Below are positions 2,307 to 62,621 of a DNA stretch of 64,000 nt, piece by piece. The position numbers and the translations under genes were made by a program. Source of the stretch: Paraspadella gotoi (taxonomy: Eukaryota > Animalia > Chaetognatha); the NCBI GenBank assembly GCA_051294375.1, contig CM119268.1, positions 1,291,218-1,355,217 of the forward strand, given 5' to 3'. The notes beneath the pieces were generated by a model. That model ran no database searches. It had not been told where the DNA came from and was given only the letters and a program-made list of their open reading frames with translations. Position 1 is the first letter of the stretch; each line of letters opens with the position of its first letter.

Positions 2307-2938
2307 CTGATATTTGTCCATCCAGTGAATAGCAGGCAAGGACATGAATTCGTGTTTCATATCTTCTGAATGTTTTACATCATTTTGAATATGATTCAAA
2401 ATTTCTTCTTGACATAATCTATCTTCTTCCACTTCATAATTAATACCAGTTTTTTTATTATTAATTTTTAAATGGGCAGTTTTTTCCCCAGTTTTTAATT
2501 TAGTGTCCTTTATTTCTTTTCCCACTTTATTTAAATTTGGCGGTTTTTCAGATGATTTATGTGCTAACAAATCGCTGTTAGCTTTATGTTTACTTGATGA
2601 ATGATCTTCATTTTTCTTTAAATGGGGTGCACACTCTTCAGCTAATGAGTTTAAACTTCCAGTACTCTTTGCCAGACTCGTGTCTTTTAATTTCAGATCA
2701 GTTCCATTTAATCCCTTGATCTTGGATTTATCAGAAACTATTATACGCTTTCTATTATTTGCATTACTAAGTAGATTTAATTTTTTATTTAATTCTTTGT
2801 AAGCTTCTGTGATATAACCTTCATCATCATCAACATCTCTTATATTTTGAGTCACAGCAACATTATTATCATAGTTAGCAGGTATTTTGGAAAATATCTG
2901 CTCACCTTTGTCTTGAAGATCTTCTGAATGTCCACTTC
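2307..2938 (-). CDS. Gene A exon, low-complexity K/N/E-rich linker
   Basis: Within ORF 2286..2969; acceptor ttttttag|GA at 2939 and donor CAG|GTAAAA at 2306; phases match both neighbours (67-bp intron 2939..3005). Confidence 0.85.
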
Positions 2939-3005
2939 CTAAAAAAATATATATAAAATTAAAAACCATTTACACCATACAACATTGTAAGTGAAAAAAC
3001 CCTAC

Positions 3006-5227
3006 CTGGTAAGCCATGCTTTTGATCAACAGGACAGAGATTGTTCTCGTCATCATCTCTTAATTCATAATTCTTGAAATTTGAAAGAGTATCTGAATCT
3101 ACTTTTTTGTCATTCAAGTCCTCATTTAATAAAGTATCTTCAGTTACTTGTGACTCATTTTCAGGAATTTCAATTTCAGTTTCATATGTTTCTACATCGC
3201 TATTCAAACTTTTACCCTGTAATTTAGGATTTTCTTTATTATTGTCTGGTTTTTTTGTTTCAAAATTTATATTATCTTGACAAATATCTACTTCCTTTGC
3301 AATCTGTTTTTCCTCCATTTTATTATGAACTTGGCTATTCTCTTTTAATTGATATAAGCTATCCTCGTCTGGTTTTTCTTTAGCTTCTGCTTGTAATTCA
3401 TACAAACTATCAAAATTTTCCCCCCATCTCTTTGGTTTTTCCTCTTCTTCTTCTTCTTCTTCTTCTTCTTTTTCTTCTCCTTCATCTTTTACCACTTCAA
3501 TATCTTCTTTTAATTCATACAAGTTTTCAAAATTTTCCCCCCATCTCTTTGGTTTTTCCTCTTCTTCTTCTTCTTCTTCTTCTTCTTCTTCTTCTTTTTC
3601 TTCTCCTTCATCTTTTAAAGCTTCAATATCTTCTTGTAATTCATACAAGTTTTCAAAATTTTCCCCCCATCTCTTTGATTTATCTTCCTCTTTTACTTTG
3701 TTGTTAGCAACTTCAGTATCTTCTTGCAACTCATACAAAATATGCAAAATTTTCCCCCCATTCTTTGGTTTGTTTTTCTTCTTCTTCTTCTTCTTTTGTT
3801 AGCAACTTCAGTATCTCTTCTTGCAACTCATACAAGCTATCAAAATTTTCCCCCCACCTCTTTGGTTGTAATTCTTCTTCTACTTCTTCTTCGTTAGCAA
3901 CTTCAGTATCTCTTGCAACTCATACAAACTATCAAAATTTTCCCCCACCTCTTTGGTTGTTTTTCTTCTTCTACTTCTTCTTCATTATTAACTTCAGTAT
4001 CTTCTTGCAACTCATACAAACTATCAAAATTTTCCCCCCACCTCTTTGGTTGTTTTTCTTCTTCCACTTCTTCTTCATTATTAACATCAGTATCTTCTTG
4101 CAACTCATACAAATTATCAAAATTTTCTCCCCACCTCTTTGGTTGTTTTTCTTCTTCTACTTCTTCTTCATTAGCAGCTTCAGTCGCTTGCAATTCATAT
4201 AAGTTATCAAAATTTTCTCCCCATCTTTTTGGCTTTATTTCTTCTTCTTCTTCTTCTTCTTCTTCTTCTTCTTTCAGAGCTTCAGAATCTTCTTGTAATT
4301 CATATAAACGGTCAAAGTTTTCACCCCATCTCTTTGGTTTTTCTTCAGCTTCATTCCGCTCAGCATCTTCTGATTTTAATTTGTATAAACTATCATAATT
4401 TTCTCCCCAGATTTTGTTTTGGAAATTACTTTTACCTTGAAGGTCCTCAGTATCAACCTTATGATTTTCTACTTCATCAACCTCATCAAATCTCGAAGTC
4501 TCATCCAATCCATTCATCTTTGATTCTCCAGAAAGATAATCTTCAGAATAAGTTTCTAGATTAAAATCAAGATTATCATAGTTAACACTCTCTCCATATC
4601 TCTTTGGTTCAGGAAAGCCTTCCCATTGCAAAGAAACATTTAGGTCATCCTCTTCACTGGTTTGATCCAAAGATTCTGTCTCATCAGTTTCTGAACTGCA
4701 TTCCTTCCAAAAAGTTGAAGACTTTTCACTTTGATCAGATTGCTGATTTCCTGAAGAAGAAAAAGAACTTAAACTAATTTTTACCAAATCATTTGATGAT
4801 TCGATCTGAGTATCATCATTGCTGATTTCTCCATAATTTTTACTTAAGATAATTTCAGAGTGAGAATTAGAATCATATATTTTTGATTTTTTACACAATA
4901 CAGTTTTTTCATCACGAGACCTTTTTGTTTCGGAATTTAAAGAGTTTGTGCTACCATTTTTCATTTGAGGGTTAGTAACATTTATCAATTGTGAATGATC
5001 ATTAGCTTCATTTAAAGAACTATTCGATACAGATAACTCTTTATTTGAGCCACTTTTTGACTTATGTACAAGCGGCCCAAAAAATGATTCCCCTTTTTTC
5101 CAGAAAAAATTTTTTATTTTCTCGAACATATGGTCCGGAGCTTCAACCTTATCCAATCCAATATGATTGGAATTCACGGATGATGTGTCTGTTGTGGGAT
5201 CAGTAGAAGATGTACCAATCAGATGCT
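3006..5227 (-). CDS. Gene A giant exon with ~11 KPKRWGENFDxLYELQE repeats separated by poly-Glu
   Basis: ORFs 3903..5177 and 2959..3747 are one repeat protein broken by frameshifts near 3750-3950 (probable sequencing errors); acceptor attacag at 5228, donor CCAG|GTAGGG at 3005. Confidence 0.8.
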
Positions 5228-6289
5228 CTGTAATAATACAAAATTACATTAAATAACTAAAAATTGTGAATTCAAAACTTTTGAATAAACTAAAAAAATT
5301 TTAGCCATTTTGCTAGTAATGAGAAATTCAATAATAATAATAATAATAATAATAATATAATTTTATTAATAAAAATTCGTACTGAAAGCATAGCTGCTAA
5401 AATTTTTTTATTAAAATAACTATAGAAATTAAGAAGTTATGAAGGTGTTAAACTTAAAAACTTTACACATCCCATTGCAAAAGGACACAGCATTATACCG
5501 ACATATACGTAGCAACCTGCTTTAAATAAAGCATAAACTTTTTTAAAGCAAAGTTCAGGCGGGTAAAATCATACAAAAATCTCATGATTACAATTTCTTG
5601 TAATCATATCGAAGGATATTTTGTTAAAAAGTAACTTTAATTCCCTCGATGGATAATTTTAGAAAATCTTGTTTATATGACTTTCAACTGACAAAAATAG
5701 AATTGTAGAACATAAACTGGTCTACAATTTCTTCAAAAGCTAAAATTATTTAATGCAAAAAGCAAAGAAGGTGACATCCAAGGAAAAGATAAAGTACAGT
5801 AATCTGAGAGAGACGAAAATGACTGTAAATAGATTACATGATGCTACAAAGCGAAAAATCTAAGAGGCAGAGAAAATGAAATTAGTTCATTGAAAACTTT
5901 TAAAATTATTTATTCTATGAAATGAAATTTTATCTCTTACTGGTTTCAAGAATTTGGAATCGAAATCGAATATTATAGTATATAAAAGAGCTCATTGACC
6001 CATACCAGTTAAACAGTTAAGGAAGTTTAAAAAAATTTTAAAAAACAGAAGAAACATAATTTTCAATAAAGTTAAAAACAAATTCATTATAATAAGTTAT
6101 TAAATTTATGTTATTTCCGTTTTAACTTTAATTAATATAGAAACACATCATTTTCTTCCTCCACAGTTTTTTGAGCACAACATAGATTTGAAGAAAAACT
6201 ACTATGTTTAGAGACAAATTATTTTAAAAAAGAAGAAAGAGAAAAACAAGAAAAACGAGAAAATAAGAGATAAAGAAAAAGAGAATGAG

Positions 6290-40857: not shown

Positions 40858-43800
40858 GGCACGAGGCGAAAATCGACGATGGGCGAAATATTTTTCGAAT
40901 CATCATCCCTGGATCCTAGAGAAAACGACCTCGGCCAAAGGAAGGATTTAAGGGGAGGATTTGAGGTGGAGGGATTTAAGGGGAAGGATTCAATGGGAAG
41001 GATTAATGGGAAGGATATTAAGGGGTGGGTTTGAGGGAAAGGAAAAGGAAAAGGAAAAGGAAAAGGATTAGAGGAAAAGTATTTGGCGGAGGGATTTGTG
41101 GATATGATTCGGCAAGTGACGATCGTCGAAGGTTGCGATGAAAGTTCGGTTAAAAGGTTTAAAAATAAAAATAAAAATAATTATTACATATTACGTCTTT
41201 GTTGTCGTCGACATCTTGTTAGTATAATGAGTCAGATGTCAGAAATGTGTCGAGGTCGATGAATTTTAATGTACCAATAAAAACATCTTAATTTTAAATA
41301 ATAACAATCTTTCAATTTTCAAGAGTGTTTGTCTTCGAATCAATTAAGACAAACTTTTATTACTTTTATCAAAGGCCTCGAGAAATGAGAGTCTATCAAA
41401 CCAAAACCGATATTCACAATTAATTAATTAATTAATAAAATTAATCACCAAAATTATTTAAAAAAATAAACATGAAATGATTTGCCTTTTTTGTGCTCGA
41501 GGCTGTGATTTATAGACGTATGTATTTATAAATAACGATTTGAAGTTAAGTACAAGATGAACACGACTATACATAGACATTTCTCGCTCAACAACGACAT
41601 TTACTACGACGACGACGACGACGACGACGACGATAAATCTCATTACAAGTCGACCACAACTTCTTCTCTTGCGACGTCCTCCACATCTTCCAATCCTTTC
41701 AACGCCATCTTCCGTCACGTCAACACGACGTACTGTCCCATCTCGTCGGTCTTCGAATGGAACCGCATGCTCCATCGCGAGGACCCCCTTGTGGCGAAGT
41801 CGCCCCTCGCTTTGGATCGACGCTGCCACCAAACGGCGACGACGACGACGACGACGATGACGAGGACCGCGACCAAGGCGATTGACCCAACCGTTGGAAT
41901 CGCTCGTCGAAGGCTGCGGATGTGATCCCCGGATGTGAGCGTAGAACCTGTCGAGCGCCGTTCGCTTCTCGTCCGCCTCGAGGATCAACTGGACGCGACA
42001 GATTGTAAGCGGCCGAAGGATGGGAGTCGCACTCCGTCGCAGGCTCCTCCTTGGATTCGTCCGTCGACGACGGAGATCGAGCCTCTCGTCCAGTTGCCTC
42101 CGCCGCAGGCGATCGTCGAGTCTCAAACATTTCGTCGTCCGACTGCAGTTTCCGTCGGGAAATCTCGACGCAGGCGCTCGGTCAACTCGTCGGCCAATCC
42201 CATGACCTTCGCTCTCGTCCAACTCGATGGCGAACAAAGTCATCCGGACCACGAGGACATTCGCGTTTCCGGTTTCCGGCAAATTCTTCGGCAGAGAAAT
42301 CTCGCACTTTTCCCGGCAATCCAACTCTTTTTCCGGCGCTGGAACTAACTCCACGATTGGCCTTGTCATAAGGAAATAACAAAAAGTTATCACTTTTTAA
42401 TTCTGAATTAAATCAACATATTTAAGTATTTTGTAAAACAAATTTTCGTTTTATGTATCTCTGGAAGGATATTTTAACATTATTTTTTTGGTTTTCACCT
42501 GCGTAATCGCAAACGAGGCCGTTAATAGTTTTCCCTGCATCGACAATCGAACGATCCCGGCGAATTCCGGCTTCGGCGCCGTGTCGGCACGGACTCATCG
42601 AGACGCATTCGTCGACGTCTTGCAGAGTATGCTCGATCTCCGCCTTCGATCTTCCTTCCCATCGAGAGGCGTCATCGTTGAGTCTCGTTTGATTACAGAC
42701 GATCACGACGCCCTCTTCCGTCGCGTTGTATCCCTCGGCGCAGGACAAGGAGCACGAGTCTCCGTCGCTCAACTCTCCCGCGTCGACGGAACAGTTGAAG
42801 GCGACTCCTTCACCGAAGGGAAGTTCGCAAAGGAGCCTTTCGCAGGTGGAGTCGACCGTCGGCGTCCACGAACCCTCACGTCCTTTGTCCTTTATGTTCG
42901 CAGGTGAAATTTCGTTCTTTCCTTTCGGCCAAAAATCCTCGGTCGCAGAGCAGACGACATTCCTCCCGCATTTTCGATCCGCAGGCGCTCGAGGTTGGCG
43001 TGGTCGACGCTCAATTCTCCGCAGTCGACGGCGAGGCAGCCGGCGACGCGTCCAGACTCCCTCCATTCGCTGCGCGTCGACGGACGATGGGCGCAGGTGA
43101 GGGTTGGTCGAGGAGTCTACCAGAAGCGTCGTGCATTCCAGGCGACAGCTGGCGCCGTAGTGGTAGTCTTCGCCCACGGAACAATCTGGTCAGAGTCACG
43201 TTGGGCGGAACGTGGGATTCGTTCAGGCGAACAGGAAACGGCGCTGGTGGAACTAGGCCAGATCCGAACAGGTCCTCGATCCAGTCGCGGGAGACAGGCC
43301 CGGGCTGGCCTGGCCGCAACGGCCCAGTCGAAGGGCCGGAGCTGATACAATCCGGGGCGCGCAGAGGAATGGCAGGGTCTCGTTGAAGGAAGCTTTGGCG
43401 CGCAGGTGGACGAGAGGTTGGTCTTTCAGCGGGAGGGCGGCGATTCTGGAAAACAGGTTCGTATTAAAATCTATATGACAAGAATTTAAATTAACGAATT
43501 GAAGTACTAAACAAAATGACAATGAATAACCAGCAGTATAACGGTTGAATAAAGGAGGTGAACGTGAGCTGAATGAATGAAGAATTGAATGAATGAATAA
43601 ATGAATGAATGAGATAATGAATGAATATGAATGAATTGAATGAGTGAATGAATGAATGAATGAACTAATGAATGAATAATTGAAGAATAAATAAAGGTTA
43701 AAATAAATAAATTAATTCAATCAAACAATCAATATTCCATCATTCATAAATTTTAACCAATCAATCCAATAAATCAATCAATCAATGAATCAATCAATCA

Positions 43801-44440
43801 AGAGGATTATCATAACCACTGCTCCGACGCGGCAATCTATTCCATAAAATCCGTCTATACATTGGTCCGTCTCCAGACAAACTCCCGACTCCCGATCGCA
43901 ACTTCCTCTCGCGCATGCGCAGTCTCTCTCGCATTCGCGCCGAATTTCCCTCGCCGCAGCCTCGGATCGAGCAGTTGCCGAAGGAAAGTTCTAGAGCGTC
44001 GAGGGCGACCGATCGGACCCGGGGGTAAGTTTGAGACGGAGCTGAAGATGAGTAAAGGAGTATATTGTCAACCAGTCAGGTTTTAAGCCAGATCAGGTCG
44101 GATTCGACAGGCAGGAATTCAGGAAAAAGTGGGGCGGAATTATTTTGGTAAGACATGCGCTCAGTCGCCTCAACTGATTATCCAAATTAATATTTAAAAT
44201 TTCATTATGATATATACCAACATTTTTTCTTTTTTTTGGCGAATTTGATAGCATTTTTTTAATCACATAATAATTCATGTTTGAATAAATATTATAATAA
44301 TGTTCGAAAATAAAATTCTTGTGGTGGTATATTCACACCACCTCACGTCCGTCATCCTTCAGCCAAATCCATTGGCTCAGAGGGGGAACACACCATTCCA
44401 AGCGTAGTGTTCATCCACAGTCCTAACGACTTCCCTCTGC

Positions 44441-44520
44441 GTTGGCAAAGCGAGACCGTCCTAGGGTAACCGCGCCAGTGACTGGAAGGCGTCACTGAGG
44501 GTCGAAGCCCCAAAGCCAAC
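44441..44520 (+). ncRNA. Twister ribozyme, type P5 (5' LTR, copy 1; L4 lacks one G)
   Basis: GUUGGC-AAA-GCGA-GACCG-UCCUAGGG-UAA-CCGC-GC-P3 hairpin-A-GGG-UCGAAGC-CCC-AAA-GCCAAC; predicted cleavage 44467/44468. Confidence 0.7.
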
Positions 44521-44926
44521 AGTGAGATGCCCCATCCAATGGGCATCACAGGCAACCCGGCTGTTGCCATAAGTGGTGAGCCCTACTATCGAACACGCAA
44601 CCTTCTCAGGGTACGCTATGACAAACGCCTATGCCTGCCGACTTCGGGTACGCTACGACAAACGCCTATGCCCCTGGGGTAACGCTACGACAAACGCCTA
44701 TGCCCCCACAACTCGCGCTCTCTCTCTCTCTCCCACTATGGTAACAGTCTTGTCAGACACCTCTCAGGCTTGAGGAACCTGAGTGATGTCTTGGCCCGGG
44801 ATCCTGTGGTGGTATATTCACACCACCTCACGTCCGTCATCCTTCAGCCAAATCCATTGGCTCAGAGGGGGAACACACCATTCCAAGCGTAGTGTTCCAT
44901 CCACAGTCCTAACGACTTCCCTCTGC

Positions 44927-45007
44927 GTTGGCAAAGCGAGACCGTCCTAGGGTAACCGCGCCAGTGACTGGAGGCGTCACTGAGGGTCGGAAGCCCCCAA
45001 AGCCAAC
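44927..45007 (+). ncRNA. Twister ribozyme, type P5 (3' LTR, copy 1)
   Basis: Full core: L1 UAA and GA, L4 UCGGAAGC, T1 CGG/CCG, T2 GC/GC, P3 CAGUGAC/GUCACUG, P5 GUUGGC/GCCAAC; predicted cleavage 44953/44954. Confidence 0.8.
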
Positions 45008-46159
45008 AGTGAGATGCCCCATCCCAATGGGCATCACAGGCAACCCGGCTGTTGCCATATTCTTTTACTTTTTCTCAACATGAACGGAAATTCAAATATG
45101 TGTTGCGCCGCAGTGACTTTCTTAGCCCGTCTTTTGTTCTTTATAGTTTTATGATTTCCTGAAGGCGGCGCAAGCAGTCACTTAGATTTGAGGTTTTTTC
45201 TGTCTTAACAAATGAGCAACTAACTATGGGCGAGTTATGAGCATTTTTAACGTAAGTGGGACAGACCGACGGACAGACATACCGACCGACAGACCGTCCG
45301 ACCGACTGACAGAACGAACGGAAAGTGTCTCATAAAAAATCTCCCACAATTTCTACCTTTCCGTATTTGCATCAACGTCCAACGGAATATATTTCCATTT
45401 TTCTCCCTGATTTCCGCTGATTTTCCAAATGACTTCTCGATCGTAGATCGTCTCCCCTTCTATCACAAGTCCTTGCGATGTCATAACGTCGTCTGTGTGA
45501 TTGATCCACGGAGCGTACATGTGATAAAAGAAGGACAAGCATCTTCCAGCCGATGTGCTGTTGAAAAAGCAAAGAAAAATACTTTAAGTCTTTAGCCTTT
45601 GCTTAACCAATACAATTTAACATTTTTATTTAAAAATATTAACAAAAATTAACCAAATTTAAGTACCGATTTTCCTGCTTGATATTTGGCAACAAAATAT
45701 CAAAAGTAGAGTAGCCTTCTTCTTGGTCGATGAGTAGGAATTTTCCTGAATGTTCACACAATTTCACAATCAATAAACGTGAATCATAGGAGCCAGTCCA
45801 CAATTTACAAAAACGTTGCTATTTGAACCCCACCTTGGCAAGATGGTCTCTTCGTACAGTGATCAAACTTTGCCCCGGCTATGCCCGTTAGACTACATCC
45901 GGGGCAATAGCACAATCGCCTCCCGTATCATTATCGGGATTGTAGCAAAAGTTTTCGTATTCATCACGACGGGTTGCGAGTGATTGCTCCAGAGTTCGCA
46001 TTCAACGAGCTCACCAGTTGCGCCTTGAGTCGCAAAATGCCACGTGCGGTGGAGTTCCGAACAATCTTTGGAAGGAAATAAAAGAATGAAGCAATCGATC
46101 GATCGATCGATCGATCGATCGATCGATCGATCGATCGATCGATCGATCAATCAATCAAT

Positions 46160-50616: not shown

Positions 50617-50766
50617 CTTGTCATAAGGAAATAACAAAAAGTTATCACTTTTTAATTCTGAATTCTAAAATTCTAATTCTAAAATCCCATTTAAGTATTT
50701 TGTAAAACAAATTTTCGTTTTATGTATCTCTGGAGGATATTTTAACATTATTTTTTTGGTTTTCAC

Positions 50767-51695
50767 CTCGTAATCGCAAACGAGGCCGTAATAGTTTTCC
50801 CTGCATCGACAATCGAACGATCCCGGCGAATTCCGGCATTCGGCGCCGTGTCGGCACGGACTCATCGAGACGCATTCGTCGACGTCTTGGCAGAGATGCT
50901 CGATCTCCGCCTTCGATCTTCCTTCCCATCGAGAGGCGTCATCGTTGAGTCTCGTTTGATTACAGACGATCACGACGCCCTCTTCCGTCGCGTTGTATCC
51001 CTCGGCGCAGGACAAGGAGCACGAGTCTCCGTCGCTCAACTCTCCCGCGTCGACGGAACAGTTGAAGGCGACTCCTTCACCGAAGGGAAGTTCGCAAAGG
51101 AGCCTTTCGCAGGTGGAGTCGACCGTCGGCGTCCACGAACCCTCACGTCCTTTGTCCTTTTGTTCGCAGGTGAAATTTCGTTCTCCTTTCGGCCAAAATC
51201 CTCGGTCGCAGAGCAGACGACATTCCTCCCGCCATTTCGATCCGCAGGCGTCGAGGTTGGCGTGGTCGACGCTCAATTCTCCGCAGTCGACGGCGAGGCA
51301 GCCGGCGACGGTCCAGACTCCCTCCATCGCTGCGGCGTCGACGGACGACTGGGCGCAGGTGAGGTTGGTCGAGGAGTCTGACCAGAAGCCGTCGTGGCAT
51401 TCCAGGCGACAGCTGGCGCCGTAGTGGTAGTCTTCGCCCACGGAACAATCGGTCAGAGTCACGTTGGGCGGAACGTGGGATTCGTTCAGGCGACAGGAAA
51501 CGGGCGAACAGGCCAGATCCGACAGGTCCTCGATCCAGTCGCCGGGAGACAGGCCCGGGCTGGCCTGGCCGCAACGGCCCGTCGAAGGGCCGGAGCGATA
51601 CAATCCGGGGGCGCAGAGGAATTGGCAGGTCTCGTTGAAGGAAGCTTTGGCGCCGCAGGTGGACGAGAGGTTGGTCTTCAGCGGGAGGGCGCATT
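50767..51695 (-). CDS. Gene B exon (copy 2, intact frame): ~4 sushi/CCP modules plus calcium-binding EGF
   Basis: ORF 50665..51768 with CxxxCxxG[YF]...C...W...C sushi patterns and DVDECVSMSPCRHGAECRNSPGSFDCRCRENYYGLVC; ttccag acceptor, GAG|GTGAAA donor. Confidence 0.9.
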
Positions 51696-52053
51696 CTGGA
51701 AAACAGGTTCGTATAAAATCTATATGACAAGAATAAATTAACGAATGAAGTACTAAACAAAATGACAATGAATAACCCAGTTAACGGTTGAATAAAGGAG
51801 TGAGTGAGTGAATGAATGAATGAATGAATGAATGAATGAATGAATGAATGAATAAATGAATGAATGAATGAATGAATTAATGAGTGAATGAATGAATGAA
51901 TGAACTAATGAATAAATAAATTGAAGAATAAATAAAGGTTAAAATAAATAAATTAATCAATCAAACAATCAATTATTCCATCATTCAATAAATTAACCAA
52001 TCAATCAATAAATCAATCAATCAATGAATCAATCAATCAAAGGATTATCATAC

Positions 52054-52278
52054 CCACTGTCGACGCGCAATCTATTCCATAAAATCCGTCTATACATTGG
52101 TCCGTCTCCAGACAAACTCCCGACTCCCGATCGCAACTTCCTCTCGCGCATGCGCAGTCTCTCTCGCATTCGCGCCGAATTTTCCCTCGCCGCAGCCTCG
52201 GATCGAGCAGTTGCCGAAGGAAAGTTCTAGAGCGTCGAGGGCGACCGATCCGGACCCGGGGGTAAGTTTGAGACGGAG
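52054..52278 (-). CDS. Gene B exon (copy 2): end of MAM domain (VALDALELSFGNC) plus EGF/laminin-EGF-like module (CACARGSCDRESGVC...CIDGFYGIDC)
   Basis: Motifs visible across one frameshift; cttcag acceptor, G|GTATGA donor. Confidence 0.7.
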
Positions 52279-52680
52279 CTGAAGATGAGTAAAGGAGTAT
52301 ATTGTCAACCAGTCAGGGTTTTAAGCCAGATCAGGTCGGATTCGACAGGCAGGAATTCAGGAAAAAGTGGGGCGGAATTATTTTGGTAAGACATGCGCTC
52401 AGTCGCCTCAACTGATTATCCAAATTAATATTTAAAATTTCATTATGATATATACCAACATTTTTTTCTTTTTTTTGGCGAATTTGATAGCATTTTTTTA
52501 ATCACATAATAATTCATGTTTGAATAAATTATTATAATAATGTTCGAAAATAAAATTCTTGTGGTGGTATATTCACACCACCTCACGTCCGTCATCCTTC
52601 AGCCAAATCCATTGGCTCAGAGGGGAACACACCATTCCAAGCGTAGTGTTCCATCCACAGTCCTAACGACTTCCCTCTGC

Positions 52681-52761
52681 GTTGGCAAAGCGAGACCGTC
52701 CTAGGGTAACCGCGCCAGTGACTGGAGGCGTCACTGAGGGTCGGAAGCCCCCAAAGCCAAC
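52681..52761 (+). ncRNA. Twister ribozyme, type P5 (5' LTR, copy 2)
   Basis: Complete core as at 44927-45007; predicted cleavage 52707/52708. Confidence 0.8.
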
Positions 52762-53166
52762 AGTGAGATGCCCCATCCAATGGGCATCACAGGCAACCCG
52801 GCTGTTGCCATAAGTGGTGAGCCCTACTATCGAACACGCAACCTTCTCAGGGTACGCTATGACAAACGCCTATGCCCTGCCGACTTCGGGTACGCTACGA
52901 CAAACGCCTATGCCCCTGGGGTACGCTACGACAAACGCCTATGCCCCCACAACTCGCGCTCTCTCTCTCTCTCCCACTATGGTAACAGTCTTGTCAGACA
53001 CCTCTCAGGCTTGAGGAACCTGAGTGATGTCTTGGCCCGGGATCCTGTGGTGGTATATTCACACCACCTCACGTCCGTCATCCTTCAGCAAATCCATTGG
53101 CTCAGAGGGGGAACACACCATTCCAAGCGTAGTGTTCCATCCACAGTCCTAACGACTTCCCTCTGC

Positions 53167-53245
53167 GTTGGCAAAGCGAGACCGTCCTAGGGTAACCGCG
53201 CCAGTGACTGGAGGCGTCACTGAGGGTCGGAAGCCCAAAGCCAAC
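53167..53245 (+). ncRNA. Twister ribozyme, type P5 (3' LTR, copy 2)
   Basis: Core intact, C run of P4 short (probable homopolymer error); predicted cleavage 53193/53194. Confidence 0.75.
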
Positions 53246-53594
53246 AGTGAGATGCCCCATCCCAATGGGCATCACAGGCAACCCGGCTGTTGCCATATTC
53301 TTTTACTTTTCTCAACATGAACGGAAATTCAAATGTGTGTTGCGCCGCAGTGACTTTCTTAGCCCGTCTTTTGTTCTTTATAGTTTTATGATTTCCTGAA
53401 GGCGGCGCAAGCAGTCACTTAGATTTGAGGTTTTTTTCTGTCTTAACAAATGAGCAACTAACTATGGGCGAGTTATGAGCATTTTTAACGTAAGTGGGAC
53501 AGACCGACGGACAGACATACCGACCGACAGACCGTCCGACCGACTGACAGAACGAACGGAAAGTGTCTCATAAAAAATCTCCCACAATTTCTAC

Positions 53595-56482: not shown

Positions 56483-59400
56483 TCACGTCAACACGACGTA
56501 CTGTCCCATCTCGTCGGTCTTTTTTCGAATGGAACGATGCTCCATCGCGAGGACCCCCTAGTGGCGAAGTCGCCCCTCGCTTTGGATCGACGCTGCCACC
56601 AAACGGCGACGACGACGACGACGACGATGACGAGACCGCGACCAAGGCGATGACCCAACCGTTGGAATCGCTCGTCGAAGGCTGCGGATGTGATCCCCGG
56701 ATGTGCAGCGTAGAACCTGTGACGCGTTCGCTTCTCGTCCGCCTCGAGGATCAACTGGACGGACAGATTGTAAGCGCCGAAGGATGGAGTCGCACTCGTC
56801 GCAGGCTCCTCCTTGATTCGTCCGTCGACGACGGAGATCGAGCCTCTCGTCCAGTTGCCTCCGCGCAGGCGATCGTCGAGTCTCAAACTTCGTCGTCCGA
56901 CTGCAGTTTCCGTCGGGAATCTCGACGCAGGCGCTCGTCAACTCGTCGGCCAATCCCATGACCTTCGCCTCGGTCCAACTCGATGGCGAACAAAGTCATC
57001 CGGACCACGAGGAACATTCGCGTTTCCGGTTCCGGCAAATTCTTCGGCAGAGAAAATCTCGCACTTTTCCCGGCAATCCAACTCTTTTTCCGGCGCTGGA
57101 CTAACTCCACATTGGCCTTGTCATAAGGAAATAACAAAAAGTTATCACTTTTTAATTCTGAATTTCTAAAATTCTAATTCTAAAATCCCATTTAAGTATT
57201 TTTGTAAAACAAATTTTCGTTTTATGTATCTCTGGAGGATATTTTTAACATTATTTTTTTGGTTTTTCACCTCGTAATCGCAAACGAGGCCGTAATAGTT
57301 TTCCCTGCATCGACAATCGAACGATCCCGGCGAATTCCGGCATTCGGCGCCGTGTCGGCACGGACTCATCGAGACGCATTCGTCGACGTCTTGCAGAGAT
57401 GCTCGATCTCCGCCTTCGATCTTCCTTCCCATCGAGAGGCGTCATCGTTGAGTCTCGTTTGATTACAGACGATCACGACGCCCCTCTTCCGTCGCGTTGT
57501 ATCCCTCGCGCAGGACAAGGAGCACGAGTCTCCGTCGCTCAACTCTCCCGCGTCGACGGAACAGTTGAAGGCGACTCCTCACGAAGGGAAGTTCGAAAGG
57601 AGCCTTTCGCAGGTGGAGTCGACCGTCGGCGTCACGAACCCTCACGTCCTTTGTCCTTTTGTTCGCAGGTGAAATTTCGTTCTCCTTTCGGCCAAAATCC
57701 TCGGTCGCAGAGCAGACGACATTCCTCCCGCCATTTCGATCCGCAGGCGTCGAGGTTGGCGTGGTCGACGCTCAATTCTCCGCTAAGGGTTAAAATTCTA
57801 CTTAAATCTAGGAACACGACACATTTTCATGCATTGTATAAAATTATTAATTTCAATAGCAGTGCCAATTACGACTCTAAAGAAATTAAAGGTTTCTGAT
57901 TTTCGTTGTCGTCATAATGAAAGAATCTCTTAAAATTCCTCTAGCAAATTAGAGTTATGCTGAAATAACTTTAAATTAATAGTTTGTTACTCAATGAAAT
58001 TAAATTAATTTTTTTAACTTGCGATCAGCAACAATAGAAAGCCATTGATCGATTTATAGATACTATAAATAGCCAGCGAAATACAAAAATTTTTTAAATA
58101 ATGTTCATGATGGTTGTTATCATGTTAGAATTTGCGTAACTCTGCTATGCAGACGGAGCGCGGTCATCCGTGAGCCACGGAACTGGCCGGTTGTCGAGGA
58201 GTTGAAGAGCTATTCCAGGCGACAGCTGGCGCCGTAGTGGTAGTCTTCGCCCACGGAACAATCGGTCAGAGTCACGTTGGGCGGAACGTGGGATTCGGTT
58301 CAGGCGACAGGAAACGGGCGAACAGGCCAGATCCGACAGGTCCTCGATCCAGTCGCCGGGAGACAGGCCCGGGCTGGCCTGGCCGCAACGGCCCGTCGAA
58401 GGGCCGGAGCGATACAATCCGGGGGCGCAGAGGAATTGGCAGGTCTCGTTGAAGGAAGCTTTGGCGCCGCAGGTGGACCGAGAGGTTGGTCTTCAGCGGG
58501 AGGGCGCATTCTGGAAAACAGGTTCGTATAAAAATCTATATGACAAGAATAAATTAACGAATGAAGTACTAAACAAAATGACAATGAATAACCCAGTTAA
58601 CGGTTGAATAAAGGAGTGAGTGAGTGAATGAATGAATGAATGAATGAATGAATGAATGAATGAATGAATAAATGAATGAATGAATGAATGAATTAATGAG
58701 TGAATGAATGAATGAATGAACTAATGAATAATAAATTGAAGAATAAATAAAGGTTAAAATAAATAAATTAATCAATCAAACAATCAATTATTCCAGTCAT
58801 TCAATAAATTAACCAATCATCAATAAATCAATCAATCAATGAATCAATCAATCAAAGGATTATCATACCCACTGTCGACGCGCAATCTATTCCATAAAAT
58901 CCGTCTATACATTGGTCCGTCTCCAGACAAACTCCGACTCCCGATCGCAACTTCTCTCGCGCATGCGCAGTCTCTCTCGCATTCGCGCCGAATTTCCCTC
59001 GCCGCAGCCTCGGATCGAGCAGTTGCCGAAGGAAAGTTCTAGAGCGTCGAGGGCGACCGATCGGGACCCCGGGGGTAAGTTTGAGACGGAGCTGAAGATG
59101 AGTAAAGGAGTATATTGTCAACCAGTCAGGTTTTAAGCCAGATCAGGTCGGATTCGACAGGCAGGAATTCAGGAAAAAGTGGGCGGAATTAGTTTTGGTA
59201 AGACATGCGCTCAGTCGCCTCAACTGATTATCCAAATTAATATTTAAAATTTCATTATGATATATACCAACATTTTTTCTTTTTTTTGGCGAATTTGATA
59301 GCATTTTTTTTTAATCACATAATAATTCATGTTTGAATAAATTATTATAATAATGTCGAAAATAAAATTCTTGTGGTGGTATATTCACACCACCTCACGT

Positions 59401-61112
59401 CCGTCATCCTTCAGCCAAATCCATTGGCTCAGAGGGGAACACACCATTCCAAGCGTAGTGTTCCATCCACAGTCCTAACGACTTCCCTCTGCGTTGGCAA
59501 AGCGAGACCGTCCTAGGGTAACCGCGCCAGTGACTGGAAGGCGTCACTGAGGGTCGAAGCCCCCAAAGCCAACAGTGAGATGCCCCATCCAATGGGCATC
59601 ACAGGCAACCCGGCTGTTGCCAATAATGGTGAGCCCTACTATCGAACACGCAACCTTCTCAGGGTACGCTATGACAAACGCCTATGCCTGCCGACTTCGG
59701 GTACCTACGACAAACGCCTATGCCCCTGGGGTATCGCTACGACAAACGACCTATGCCCCCACAACTCGCGCTCTTCTCTCTCTCTCCCACTATGGTAACA
59801 GTCTTGGTCAGACACCTCTCAGGCTTGAGGAACCTGAGTGATGTCTTGGCCCGGGATCCTGTGGTGGTATATTTCACACCACCTCACGTCCGTCATCCTT
59901 CAGCCAAATCCATTGCTCAGAGGGGGAACACACCATTCCAAGCGTAGTGTTCCATCCACAGTCCTAACGACTTCCCTCTGCGTTGGCAAGCGAGACCGTC
60001 CTAGGGTAACCGCCGCCAGTGACTGGAGGCGTCACTGAGGGTCGGAAGTCCCCAAAGCCAACAGTGAGATGCCCCATCCCAATGGGCATCACAGGCAACC
60101 CGGCTGTTGCCATATTCTTTTACTTTTCTCAACATGAACGGAAATTCAAATATGTGTTGCGCCGCAGTGACTTTCTTAGCCCGTCTTTTGTTCTTTATAG
60201 TTTTATGATTTCCTGAAGGCGGCGCAAGCAGTCACTTAGATTTGAGGTTTTTTCTGTCTTAACAAATGAGCAACTAACTATGGGCGCGAGTTCATGAGCA
60301 TTGTTTAACGTAAGTGGACAGACCGACGGACAGACATACGACCGACAGACCGTCCGACCGACTGACAGAACGAACGGAAAGTGTCTCATAAAAAATCTCC
60401 ACAATTTCTACTTTCCGTATTTGGCATCAACGTCCAACGGAATATATTTCCATTTTTCTCCCTGATTTCCGCTGATTTCCAAATGACTTCTCGATCGTAG
60501 ATCGTCTCCCTTCTATCACAAGTCCTTGCGATTTCATAACGTCGTCTGTGTGATTGATCCACGGAGCGTACATGTGATAAAAGAAGGACAAGCATCTTCA
60601 GCCGATGTGCTGTGAAAAAGCAAAGAAAAATACTTTAAGTCTTTAGCCTTTGCTTAACCAATACAATTTAACATTTTTTTATTTAAAAATATTAACAAAA
60701 ATTAACCAAATTTAAGTACGATTTTCCTGCTTGATATTGGCAACAAAATATCAAAAGTAGAGTAGCCTTCTTCTTGGTCGATGAGTAGGAATTTTCCTGA
60801 ATGTTCACACAATTTCACAATCAATAACGTGAATCATAGGAGCCAGTCCACAATTTACAAAAACGTTGATATTTGAACCCCACCTTGGCAAGATGGTCTC
60901 TTTCGTACAGTGATCAAACTTTGCCCCGGCTATGCCCGTTAGACTACATCCGGGGCAATAGCACAATCGCCTCCCGTATCATTATCGGGATTGTAGCAAA
61001 ATTTTCGTATTCATCACGACGGGTTGCGAGTGATTGCTCCAGAGTTCGCATCAACGAGCTCACCAGTTGCGCTTGAGTCGCAAAATGCCACGTGCGGTGG
61101 AGTTCGAACAAT
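56483..61112 (-). CDS. Gene B 3' exons, copy 3 (MAM 60884-61112 and 60412-60609, 58869-59091, sushi/cbEGF 57271-58510, TM 56483-57116), contiguous with the unique 5' exons
   Basis: Same exons as copy 2, with indels and an AT-rich insert in the sushi exon. Confidence 0.6.
59493..59573 (+). ncRNA. Twister ribozyme, type P5 (5' LTR, copy 3; L4 lacks one G)
   Basis: Same fold; predicted cleavage 59519/59520. Confidence 0.7.
59982..60062 (+). ncRNA. Twister ribozyme, type P5 (3' LTR, copy 3; minor variants)
   Basis: Same fold with L4 UCGGAAGU and one extra C; predicted cleavage 60007/60008. Confidence 0.65.
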
Positions 61113-61824: not shown

Positions 61825-62621
61825 CTGGCGGAGAAAAAAAAAAGAGAAGTTAAATTGGAAGTTGATAGAATGTGGGAAACAGTGATATAAATTATCATTT
61901 TATTTCGAGTTTGACAATAATTGCACCAATTTCATATGTTTGTTTGTAAACTTAGTAGTTTAAATCTTAGTTTCAATAAAAAAAAGTTTTAAATTCATAT
62001 TAGACACCTGATTCAGTAACGATTCAACCAAAATCATTGGGTTTCAATAAAAACTATACCAACATCCGATGTCCATTTGTATTTTAATCCAACTAGTTGA
62101 AATTTAAACAACCAATATAGAAATTATCCATTCAGTGCCCCTGATTTTGGACAGGCTTTCGTGGTTTAAGGCCTCCATCACTCTAACAAGAGAATGACAG
62201 CTTTCAATCAAGACTCTCACACAGCCTCGTTTATTCACTCCCAGAGGACCTGGCTTCCCTTTCAATGAAGTGGTATAACATTTCAAAGAATGTTTNNNNN
62301 NNNNNTTAATCCAACTAGTTGTACGTATGAAATTGAAACAACCAATATAGAAATTATCCATTCAGTGCCCCTGACTTTGGACATCACTCTAACAAGATAA
62401 TGACATAGCAGCTACCTGCAAGCTTTCAATCAAGACTCTCACACAGTCTCGTTTATTCACTCCCAGAGTACCTGGCTTCCCTATCAATGAAGTGGTATAA
62501 TATTTCAAAGAATGTTTGTTTTTTAGCTTAAGGCAAACACAACATCGTTCACACTTATTCGTCGCACCCTTCACAGCCCAGCCCCTCACTTCACACTTCA
62601 CAACCCCCACCCCTCACTCAC

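Follow-up and report, generated by a model that had tools for sequence, protein, structure and literature searches.

Can an animal genome carry a long terminal repeat (LTR) retrozyme, and can a twister serve as the self-cleaving motif of such an element? The question is raised by a 740-bp element at 44320-45059 of a 64,000-nucleotide stretch of Paraspadella gotoi DNA (assembly GCA_051294375.1, contig CM119268.1; hereafter the window), which a preliminary description, made from the letters alone, had read as an LTR retrozyme with a type-P5 twister in each LTR. The literature of 2016-2026, represented here by excerpts except for the rice-twister study PMC5113685, splits retrozymes into plant elements with LTRs and type III hammerheads and animal elements of the non-LTR kind, which are described without LTRs and without a primer-binding site (PBS) (PMC4918200, PMC7229834, PMC7761336, 10.64898/2026.07.22.740005). 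In the excerpted papers, twisters are tied to non-LTR elements (PMC8501958, PMC7761336, PMC13725137), and those of PMC6765202 mention LTRs only in connection with hammerhead retrozymes. No paper placing a twister in an LTR element turned up in the literature searched, subscription papers and theses being outside its scope.

We put a probability of about 0.55 on the reading that the element is an animal analogue of an LTR retrozyme, dependent on CsRn1-type retrotransposons, whose dimer-assisted twister would free a 486-nt RNA that likely circularizes. The fuller claim is that the element is the first LTR retrozyme from an animal and also the first based on a twister, a CsRn1 parasite in thousands of copies of which only two-LTR transcripts would be cut, through a P1 dimer, to a circularized 486-nt unit. 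That claim we hold tentatively, at slightly short of even odds.

An LTR Element with CsRn1-Type Features

The element consists of two LTRs around a non-coding center of 233 nt (Table 1). Across six frames, its longest ATG-started open reading frame (ORF) spans 72 aa and no stop-to-stop frame exceeds 76 codons; neither AATAAA nor ATTAAA occurs anywhere in it. The outline given in the preliminary description, a 740-bp protein-free element with two LTRs, a TTCT target-site duplication (TSD), and a TGG primer-like site, proved sound; the TGG lies two bases past the 5′ LTR. For the CsRn1 clade of Ty3/gypsy retrotransposons, PMC2582038 describes a 4-bp TSD, LTR ends of TGT...AAA or TGT...ATA, LTRs of 146-381 bp, and a tRNA-Trp PBS starting TGGTGA(G/C)CCC. 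With the clade's CsRn1, PwRn1, and AgCR elements (PMC2582038), the element shares TGT...ATA ends, a 4-bp TSD, an LTR size within range, and the PBS start TGGTGAGCCC, a 10-nt match that begins two bases past the 5′ LTR. A second block, 44591-44606, equals the reverse complement of human tRNA-Trp at 16 of 16 nt (PMC5737633, bioRxiv 400127), and the part between the blocks shows two mismatches and a shortened stretch relative to that tRNA. The primer site reaches well beyond the usual 18 nt, and a second type of internal region, seen among family copies, retains it up to 44602.

The ends, the TSD, and the tRNA-Trp PBS all match the clade and indicate a helper of CsRn1 type; the element is non-autonomous and likely borrows the enzymes of CsRn1-type Ty3/gypsy elements. 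It differs from the clade in lacking gag (with its CHCC motif), pol, and a polypurine tract (PPT), and in the size of its internal region. We consider it a likely dependent of the CsRn1 clade, not a member; no ribozyme is reported for that clade in the literature searched. An origin of the repeats as Penelope pseudo-LTRs was rejected, since the PBS, ends, and TSD are of LTR type. Searches for tRNA gave no Rfam match in the window or in three of its sub-stretches, and a pattern search for tRNA-Trp through viral contigs returned 17 loci, none of them a tRNA. Within the internal region, 44723-44750 is an inverted near-copy of the LTR end and PBS, and the predicted helix would hide the primer site.

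A Type-P5 Twister Motif in Each LTR

Sequence comparison makes a twister motif in each LTR probable. After P5 and an intervening AAA, the parts run P2′-GA-T1-P1-UAA-P2-GC-P3-P4-L4-P4′, which is the consensus order of Rfam Twister-P5 (RF02684), and the catalytic bases are all present (UAA at 44953-55, GA at 44940-41, L4 at 44987-94). Every ribozyme part in the preliminary description was recovered where it had been placed, with U44953/A44954 as the predicted scissile step; its compensated T1 (CGG/CCG) and the type-P5 order in each LTR likewise held. P1, UCCUAGGG, cannot form an ordinary hairpin, for three pairs would leave a 2-nt loop.

A core-only type-P5 descriptor, which omits P1, P3, and P5 and was drawn from published consensus features after the motif had been seen, matched 44936-44997. 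The descriptor found no match in 20,000 dinucleotide shuffles made from the LTR, and 100 shuffles of the 62.6-kb N-free window, read on both strands (~12.5 million bases), yielded one match. A coincidental twister resemblance in a hairpin-rich LTR is a notion to which the late writing of the descriptor, the very many windows read, and the lack of any model-based match lend something; we nonetheless rate it as very improbable, given the shuffle counts, two perfect stems outside the descriptor (P3 of 7 bp, P5 of 6 bp) in the positions expected from the fold, and an independent partial twister-P1 alignment that covers GC-P3-P4-L4.

Table 1. Coordinates of the element, its twister motif, and associated features in the window.
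Feature	Position	Strand	Details
Left TSD, TTCT	44316-44319	+	Sequence
5′ LTR, TGT...ATA ends	44320-44571	+	252 nt in assembly; termini CsRn1-clade-like (PMC2582038, excerpt)
Type-P5 motif copy, 5′ LTR	44441-44520	+	Predicted cut 44467/44468; assembled copy with L4/P4 indels
Extended tRNA-Trp PBS	44574-44606	+	~33 nt, two blocks (PMC2582038, PMC5737633, bioRxiv 400127, excerpts)
Tandem repeats, about three of 32-37 nt	44609-44707	+	Predicted stem-loop each
Internal stretch complementary to LTR 3′ end and PBS (44557-44582)	44723-44750	+	Predicted duplex -30.3 kcal/mol
Expected PPT position	44795-44804	+	GGGA only; some family contigs with one extra G (44797)
3′ LTR	44805-45059	+	255 nt; TGTGG...CCATA like 5′ LTR
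LTR 5′ hairpin	44808-44827	+	U-A at 44810/44825 here; C-G in most family depth
Type-P5 twister motif, 3′ LTR	44927-45007	+	Probable; descriptor, Rfam order, folding
P5	44927-32/45002-07	+	6 bp, perfect
P2	44936-39/44956-59	+	3 of 4 pairs; first is C.A
GA	44940-41	+	
T1	CCG 44942-44 with CGG 44988-90	+	C-G, G-C, G-C plus A.A
P1	44945-52	+	8-nt palindrome
UAA	44953-55	+	Predicted cut 44953/44954
T2	GC 44960-61 with GC 44993-94	+	G-C, C-G
P3	44962-68/44976-82	+	7 bp, perfect hairpin
P4	44984-86/44995-97	+	Three pairs plus A.C at base
L4	44987-94	+	UCGGAAGC; U-NNN-AAGC pattern
Right TSD, TTCT	45060-45063	+	Sequence
Insertion copy 2	52560-53297	+	Next tandem-block unit, same flanks
Insertion copy 3	59372-60114	+	Same flanks
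Exon-like stretches of kringle-like/EGF/sushi gene around element	43800-46000	-	Translations; inferred gene model

With type-P5 twisters (RF02684; PMC5408937), the motif has in common the part order, UAA, GA, U-NNN-AAGC, two pairable pseudoknots, and an insertion at P3 as in some phages. It departs from them in a T1 of CGG/CCG in place of CCC/GGG, in the C.A of P2 and the A.C at the base of P4, and in scoring below the Rfam thresholds. Phage type-P5 cores with a full P2 carry a P1 hairpin of 15-26 nt, whereas P1 is here an 8-nt palindrome. Published data suggest that several of these departures are mild. P1 is reported to be deletable in twisters (PMC5408937). Among ~2,600 natural type-P1 twisters, imperfections in P1, P2, and P4 are broadly tolerated and pseudoknot mismatches are not (PMC11662667); the excerpted text of the CHiTA study has its focus on type-P1 twisters. 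A rice-twister mutant with C9.A44 as its first P2 pair (G44A) retains a relative activity of 0.97, and single T1 flips retain 0.86 (C27G/G47C) and 0.74 (C26G/G48C), in an assay that, by its authors' account, compresses rate differences (PMC5113685); we read these values by column position, with the register checked against Watson-Crick rescues of 0.83, 0.88, and 0.70. The C.A pair that the preliminary description had counted as a weak point is therefore present, yet probably not harmful, since its rice equivalent keeps 0.97.

Variation across the Family

The family was read from contigs of public sequencing runs (denoted X1, X2, and so on): 12 runs from five studies contain the stretch, and seven of them were compared. 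None of the 12 is listed as an RNA dataset; X9 and X10 may be of RNA, but the depth profile of X9 is like those of the DNA runs. Within 44905-45030, a substitution was considered if its share was 1% or more in any of four runs; six qualify, and none of them falls on a catalytic or pseudoknot base. Three lie in the P3 loop (44969, 44972, 44973). Two others are opposite each other in P3: 44967 A>G and 44977 T>C, whose depths match (1,875/1,606, 1,589/1,285, and 580/527 in X3, X5, and X9) and which occur together in one contig. The last, 44998 C>T, lets the base of P4 close with an A-U pair. Of 200,000 random draws of six substitutions, 1.2% were equally harmless, and 0.1% were so with a compensatory pair included. 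Preferential conservation of the core, with covariation, was seen across family copies, one of the checks named in the preliminary description. When 15 variants of the LTR were checked against its lowest-energy fold, 11 were unpaired and 4 were paired, these forming two compensatory pairs (the one in P3 and 44810/44825). This pattern indicates structural constraint on the LTR RNA and is compatible with catalysis without proving it. The fold of the 3′ LTR is more stable than those of 200 of 200 shuffles (z -3.55). In the wider comparison that includes X2, 40 of 76 variants were listed.

The family comprises very many copies. In X2, summed contig depth is 23-32 over the left flank and ~90,000-135,000 over the internal region, a ratio of 2,800-6,000 that is not a copy number. 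Contigs leave the stretch exactly behind 45059 (144 in X2, 28 in X9) into unlike AT-rich flanks (consensus agreement 0.42), which indicates many insertion sites at which the 3′ end is precisely the same. Each of the two LTRs has a T (44397, 44882) at a position where, among the variants listed, >99% of X2 family depth has C; the shared T fits a single template from which reverse transcription remade both LTRs. Most family contigs are at least 95% alike to the window copy, and the element belongs to a young, very high-copy, mobile family.

Other family contigs differ more. The second type of internal region diverges behind 44602 in all four runs so compared. X9 holds contigs of 1.7-3.7 kb at depths of 45-214 with a diverged LTR stretch (11-19 differences), which in two of them lies at one end; they may be larger or autonomous relatives. 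In run X10, which bears another organism label (B), a 276-nt contig matches the LTR, the PBS, and the start of the internal region with about one difference per piece; it may represent a shared element, a related species, or carry-over.

The copies within the window are less informative. An alignment of the six assembled LTRs has 13 columns with indels and 4 with substitutions, and differences among the window copies are mostly indel noise. The preliminary description had noted that two of the six lack one L4 base. The two assembled losses are there, and the loss itself is most likely long-read noise: it makes up 6% of depth in X1 and <0.3% in X3, X5, and X9, a distribution on which a real loss of the L4 G was rejected. 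Only two of the six assembled LTRs, rather than four, pass the strict descriptor; because the L4 loss is rare in three runs, these failures also look like noise.

Predicted P1 Dimer and Proposed Cycle

P1 alone folds to nothing as a monomer, and as a dimer it forms a self-duplex of 8 positions at -11.0 kcal/mol. In a strand-swapped dimer, the gap to a twister-compatible fold is 5.0 kcal/mol per ribozyme, and for the whole two-LTR transcript inter-LTR pairing of P1 lowers the gap from 21.6 to 14.7. Energy modeling thus leads to the prediction that the palindromic P1 favors a two-LTR dimer. For animal hammerheads whose helix is weak, better cleavage in the dimeric form is documented (PMC7229834, PMC7761336).

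On the preferred reading, transcription would run through both LTRs, and P1 of one LTR would pair with its counterpart in the second LTR, so that two active sites would form by strand swapping. Cuts would then fall at the predicted U/A steps 44467/8 and 44953/4. Twister cleavage leaves a 5′-OH and a 2′,3′-cyclic phosphate. The predicted unit released between the cuts is 486, 486, and 488 nt in the three window copies and, because the two LTRs would be cut at equivalent positions, the linear product would lack a terminal repeat. Reverse transcription of the ordinary LTR kind depends on such a repeat, whereas a circle does not. The ends may be joined by a tRNA ligase of the host, by analogy with retrozymes of plants and animals, and the circle would let tRNA-Trp-primed reverse transcription cross the junction without strand transfer. 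Integration of the cDNA by a helper integrase would then produce the 4-bp duplication. All 60 shuffles of the predicted circle fold less stably than the circle itself (z -2.2), and plant retrozymes are likewise modeled via a circle (PMC4918200, PMC7761336).

Evidence against the Cycle and Competing Explanations

Several results count against the proposed cycle, starting with the model searches. No Rfam family reached its gathering threshold in the window, and Twister-P5 (gathering 37.6 bits) gave no match at E up to 10. The best Rfam result, the partial twister-P1 alignment, reached 15.2 bits, where the cut-off is 67.2 (E 5.7, or 0.6 on a shorter stretch). A covariance model of our own, built from 25 of 39 distinct phage type-P5 cores picked for P2 pairing and few near-duplicates, found neither LTR at E up to 10. 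The covariance-model match that the preliminary description had named as a check was therefore obtained with neither Rfam nor the custom model. The miss is explicable, because T1 cannot be scored as pairs and the training set was selected for CCY/RGG at T1, and it is still a miss. Nor did any convincing natural twister with a CGG/CCG T1 emerge from 36 phage and prokaryote loci with that pattern: three P2 pairs occur in 3 of 29 in P5 order and 0 of 7 in P3 order, and none of 20 scanned reached E 1 in Rfam. The rice activities apply to each T1 flip singly, and tolerance of the double form would be an extrapolation from them.

Folding and variation add to this. In the energy model, the G-run of P1 pairs with the C-run of P4 in a competing fold, and pairing probabilities for P1, P2, and P4 are at most 0.02 with pseudoknots excluded. 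The monomer gap to the twister-compatible fold, 9.1 kcal/mol, is larger than in any of the 25 phage cores (range 2.5-8.7, median 3.9). In the unconstrained transcript, the inter-LTR P1 helix has a probability of ~0.01. The family variants are inherited rather than independent, and the P3 pair is the sole covarying pair inside the ribozyme. Since the diverged subfamily sits at the 1% limit, further differences, the core included, may be hidden, and one X2 contig has an altered P1/UAA region.

The covariance-model misses and the size of the monomer gap are also what a captured twister that no longer cuts would lead one to expect. Such a relic, for example from a Penelope-like element, could be kept in structured LTR RNA or belong to a burst too young to decay. 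Compensation outside the ribozyme, at 44810/44825, agrees with constraint on the LTR RNA as a whole, and the close similarity of most contigs to the window copy agrees with youth. We find this explanation unlikely, and slightly less probable than the circle-free alternative below: no catalytic or pseudoknot base has been lost, the two T1 changes being reciprocal, the six common variants spare the core, and rice mutants tolerate each departure from the consensus.

Two further absences touch the retrotransposition steps. No PPT is found in the 40 nt before the 3′ LTR, which end GGCCCGGGATCC; the preliminary description had itself named the lack of a clear PPT, rightly, as only GGGA precedes the 3′ LTR. 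Excerpts of PMC12471100 give no PPT sequence for CsRn1 elements. A helper element did not turn up in the window, where 24 of 182 ORFs were scanned against Pfam.

An active twister may also operate with no circle at all, in a deletion derivative of a twister-bearing autonomous CsRn1 element; cleavage would trim read-through or replace polyadenylation, and the uncut RNA would transpose. The absence of AATAAA and ATTAAA accords with this, the competing fold would leave many transcripts uncut, and the exit of the second internal-region type behind 44602 points the same way. So do two long X9 contigs, each known by length, depth, and LTR match and each with a diverged LTR at one end: one of 1,998 nt at depth 214 with ~1.6 kb upstream, the other of 3,737 nt at depth 45 with ~3.6 kb downstream. 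Any gag-pol in these contigs is putative only, however; same-site cuts in both LTRs would remove the terminal redundancy that an ordinary cycle needs, and ordinary plus-strand priming would have no PPT to start from. We judge this explanation improbable overall, though the most serious competitor to a circularizing retrozyme.

Relatives were also sought elsewhere. When viral contigs were scanned by pattern, the type-P5 order occurred at 51 loci, representing 39 distinct cores. Rfam was run on 20 of these, and 15 pass Twister-P5, several with a P3 insertion. Relatives of the element numbered 0 in the pattern search of viral contigs, and eight pattern matches in metagenome contigs were rejected, all being without homology to the element and without twister pairing. 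No Rfam hammerhead family matched the window or the three sub-stretches.

Relation to Known Retrozymes

Plant LTR retrozymes (PMC4918200) are the closest parallel. Like them, the element is non-coding, has a small, putatively self-cleaving motif per LTR, a 4-bp TSD, and a PBS and ends of Ty3/gypsy type; a unit-length RNA would be set by two cleavage sites, and the ribozyme motif is masked in the most stable fold. It differs in having a twister motif in place of a type III hammerhead, tRNA-Trp in place of tRNA-Met, CsRn1-like ends, and an animal-type host, and in lacking a PPT; its LTRs measure ~255 against 300-400 nt and its unit 486 against 600-1,000 nt. Expression and circles are demonstrated for the plant elements and would be predictions for the present one. 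Of the LTR-retrozyme claim in the preliminary description, the non-autonomous LTR element and the type-P5 motif stand, while the retrozyme cycle (cleavage, transcription, circles) is a prediction. On sequence grounds we classify the element as a candidate, which is neither a member of the plant retrozymes, by ribozyme class and PPT, nor a full type-P5 twister, by P1 and model score.

Animal systems offer partial parallels. The Schistosoma Perere-3 RTE twisters (PMC8501958) likewise sit on an animal retrotransposon and have a weak or variable P1; Perere-3 is a non-LTR autonomous element with one type-P1 twister at its 5′ end, whereas two type-P5 motifs lie here in true LTRs. Animal non-LTR retrozymes and Penelope pseudo-LTR hammerheads (PMC7229834, PMC7761336, bioRxiv 2026.07.22.740005) share the animal host, a small non-coding unit between two ribozymes, and a weak helix that dimerization can rescue. 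Those systems are, however, head-to-tail tandem repeats with type I hammerheads, described without LTRs, PBS, or PPT, while the element has LTRs, a PBS, and a 4-bp TSD.

If the preferred reading is correct, an animal element that combines a twister with true LTRs and a tRNA-Trp PBS would cut across the division between plant and animal retrozymes. It would mean that the life cycle of plant retrozymes was invented independently with another ribozyme, primer tRNA, and helper, so that the shortcut through a circle had more than one origin in LTR retrotransposition and its ribozymes are interchangeable. The twister, whose natural role is largely unknown, would gain a concrete job and a natural test of its action as a dimer. 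The Rfam models would be missing a class of twisters, which genome surveys may therefore undercount.

Host Locus and Neighboring Repeats

On an inferred gene model, the element would be intronic and antisense to the host transcript, a position in which the ribozyme would not cut that transcript. Pfam places sushi and EGF domains on 50665-51780 and an EGF_STAB1-2 match (E 6e-4) on a duplicate exon at 52037-52312; it gives no kringle match on the exon-like stretches, where that label was assigned by eye. The preliminary description's attribution to an animal is supported, as sushi, EGF, and C-type lectin domains in the window's genes indicate an animal host. A homologue search with the sushi protein yielded none among 942 candidates, and protein-atlas matches, each scoring below 0.9, lead weakly to sponge, mollusc, and chordate clusters and to one ciliate cluster.

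The gene, on the minus strand and of kringle-like/EGF/sushi/transmembrane type, is carried by a block of 7-8 kb that recurs in about three head-to-tail repeats over 39075-62210. Since the copies at 44320, 52560, and 59372 share both flanks, three independent insertions were rejected, and the three copies represent one insertion within a tandem block. Over 7.2 kb, the block copies differ by 238 gap openings against 25 mismatches; the block may be a true tandem array or an artefact of amplification or assembly.

Folding predictions make a packaging signal a possible role for the stem-loop repeats at 44609-44707. Just to the right of the element, a second high-copy repeat starts (45077-45260); its summed depth in X2 is ~80,000, and both variants and loose ends are numerous. 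At least nine copies of an AT-rich dispersed repeat of ~250-320 nt are spread over the window (16606, 17801, 18988, 19343, 22014, 25785, 26117, 28604, and 62091-62517). A minus-strand ORF at 3337-5243 encodes a repeated acidic motif ending 'KRWGENF..LYEL' and has a weak Pfam BBE match (E 0.002, below cut-off).

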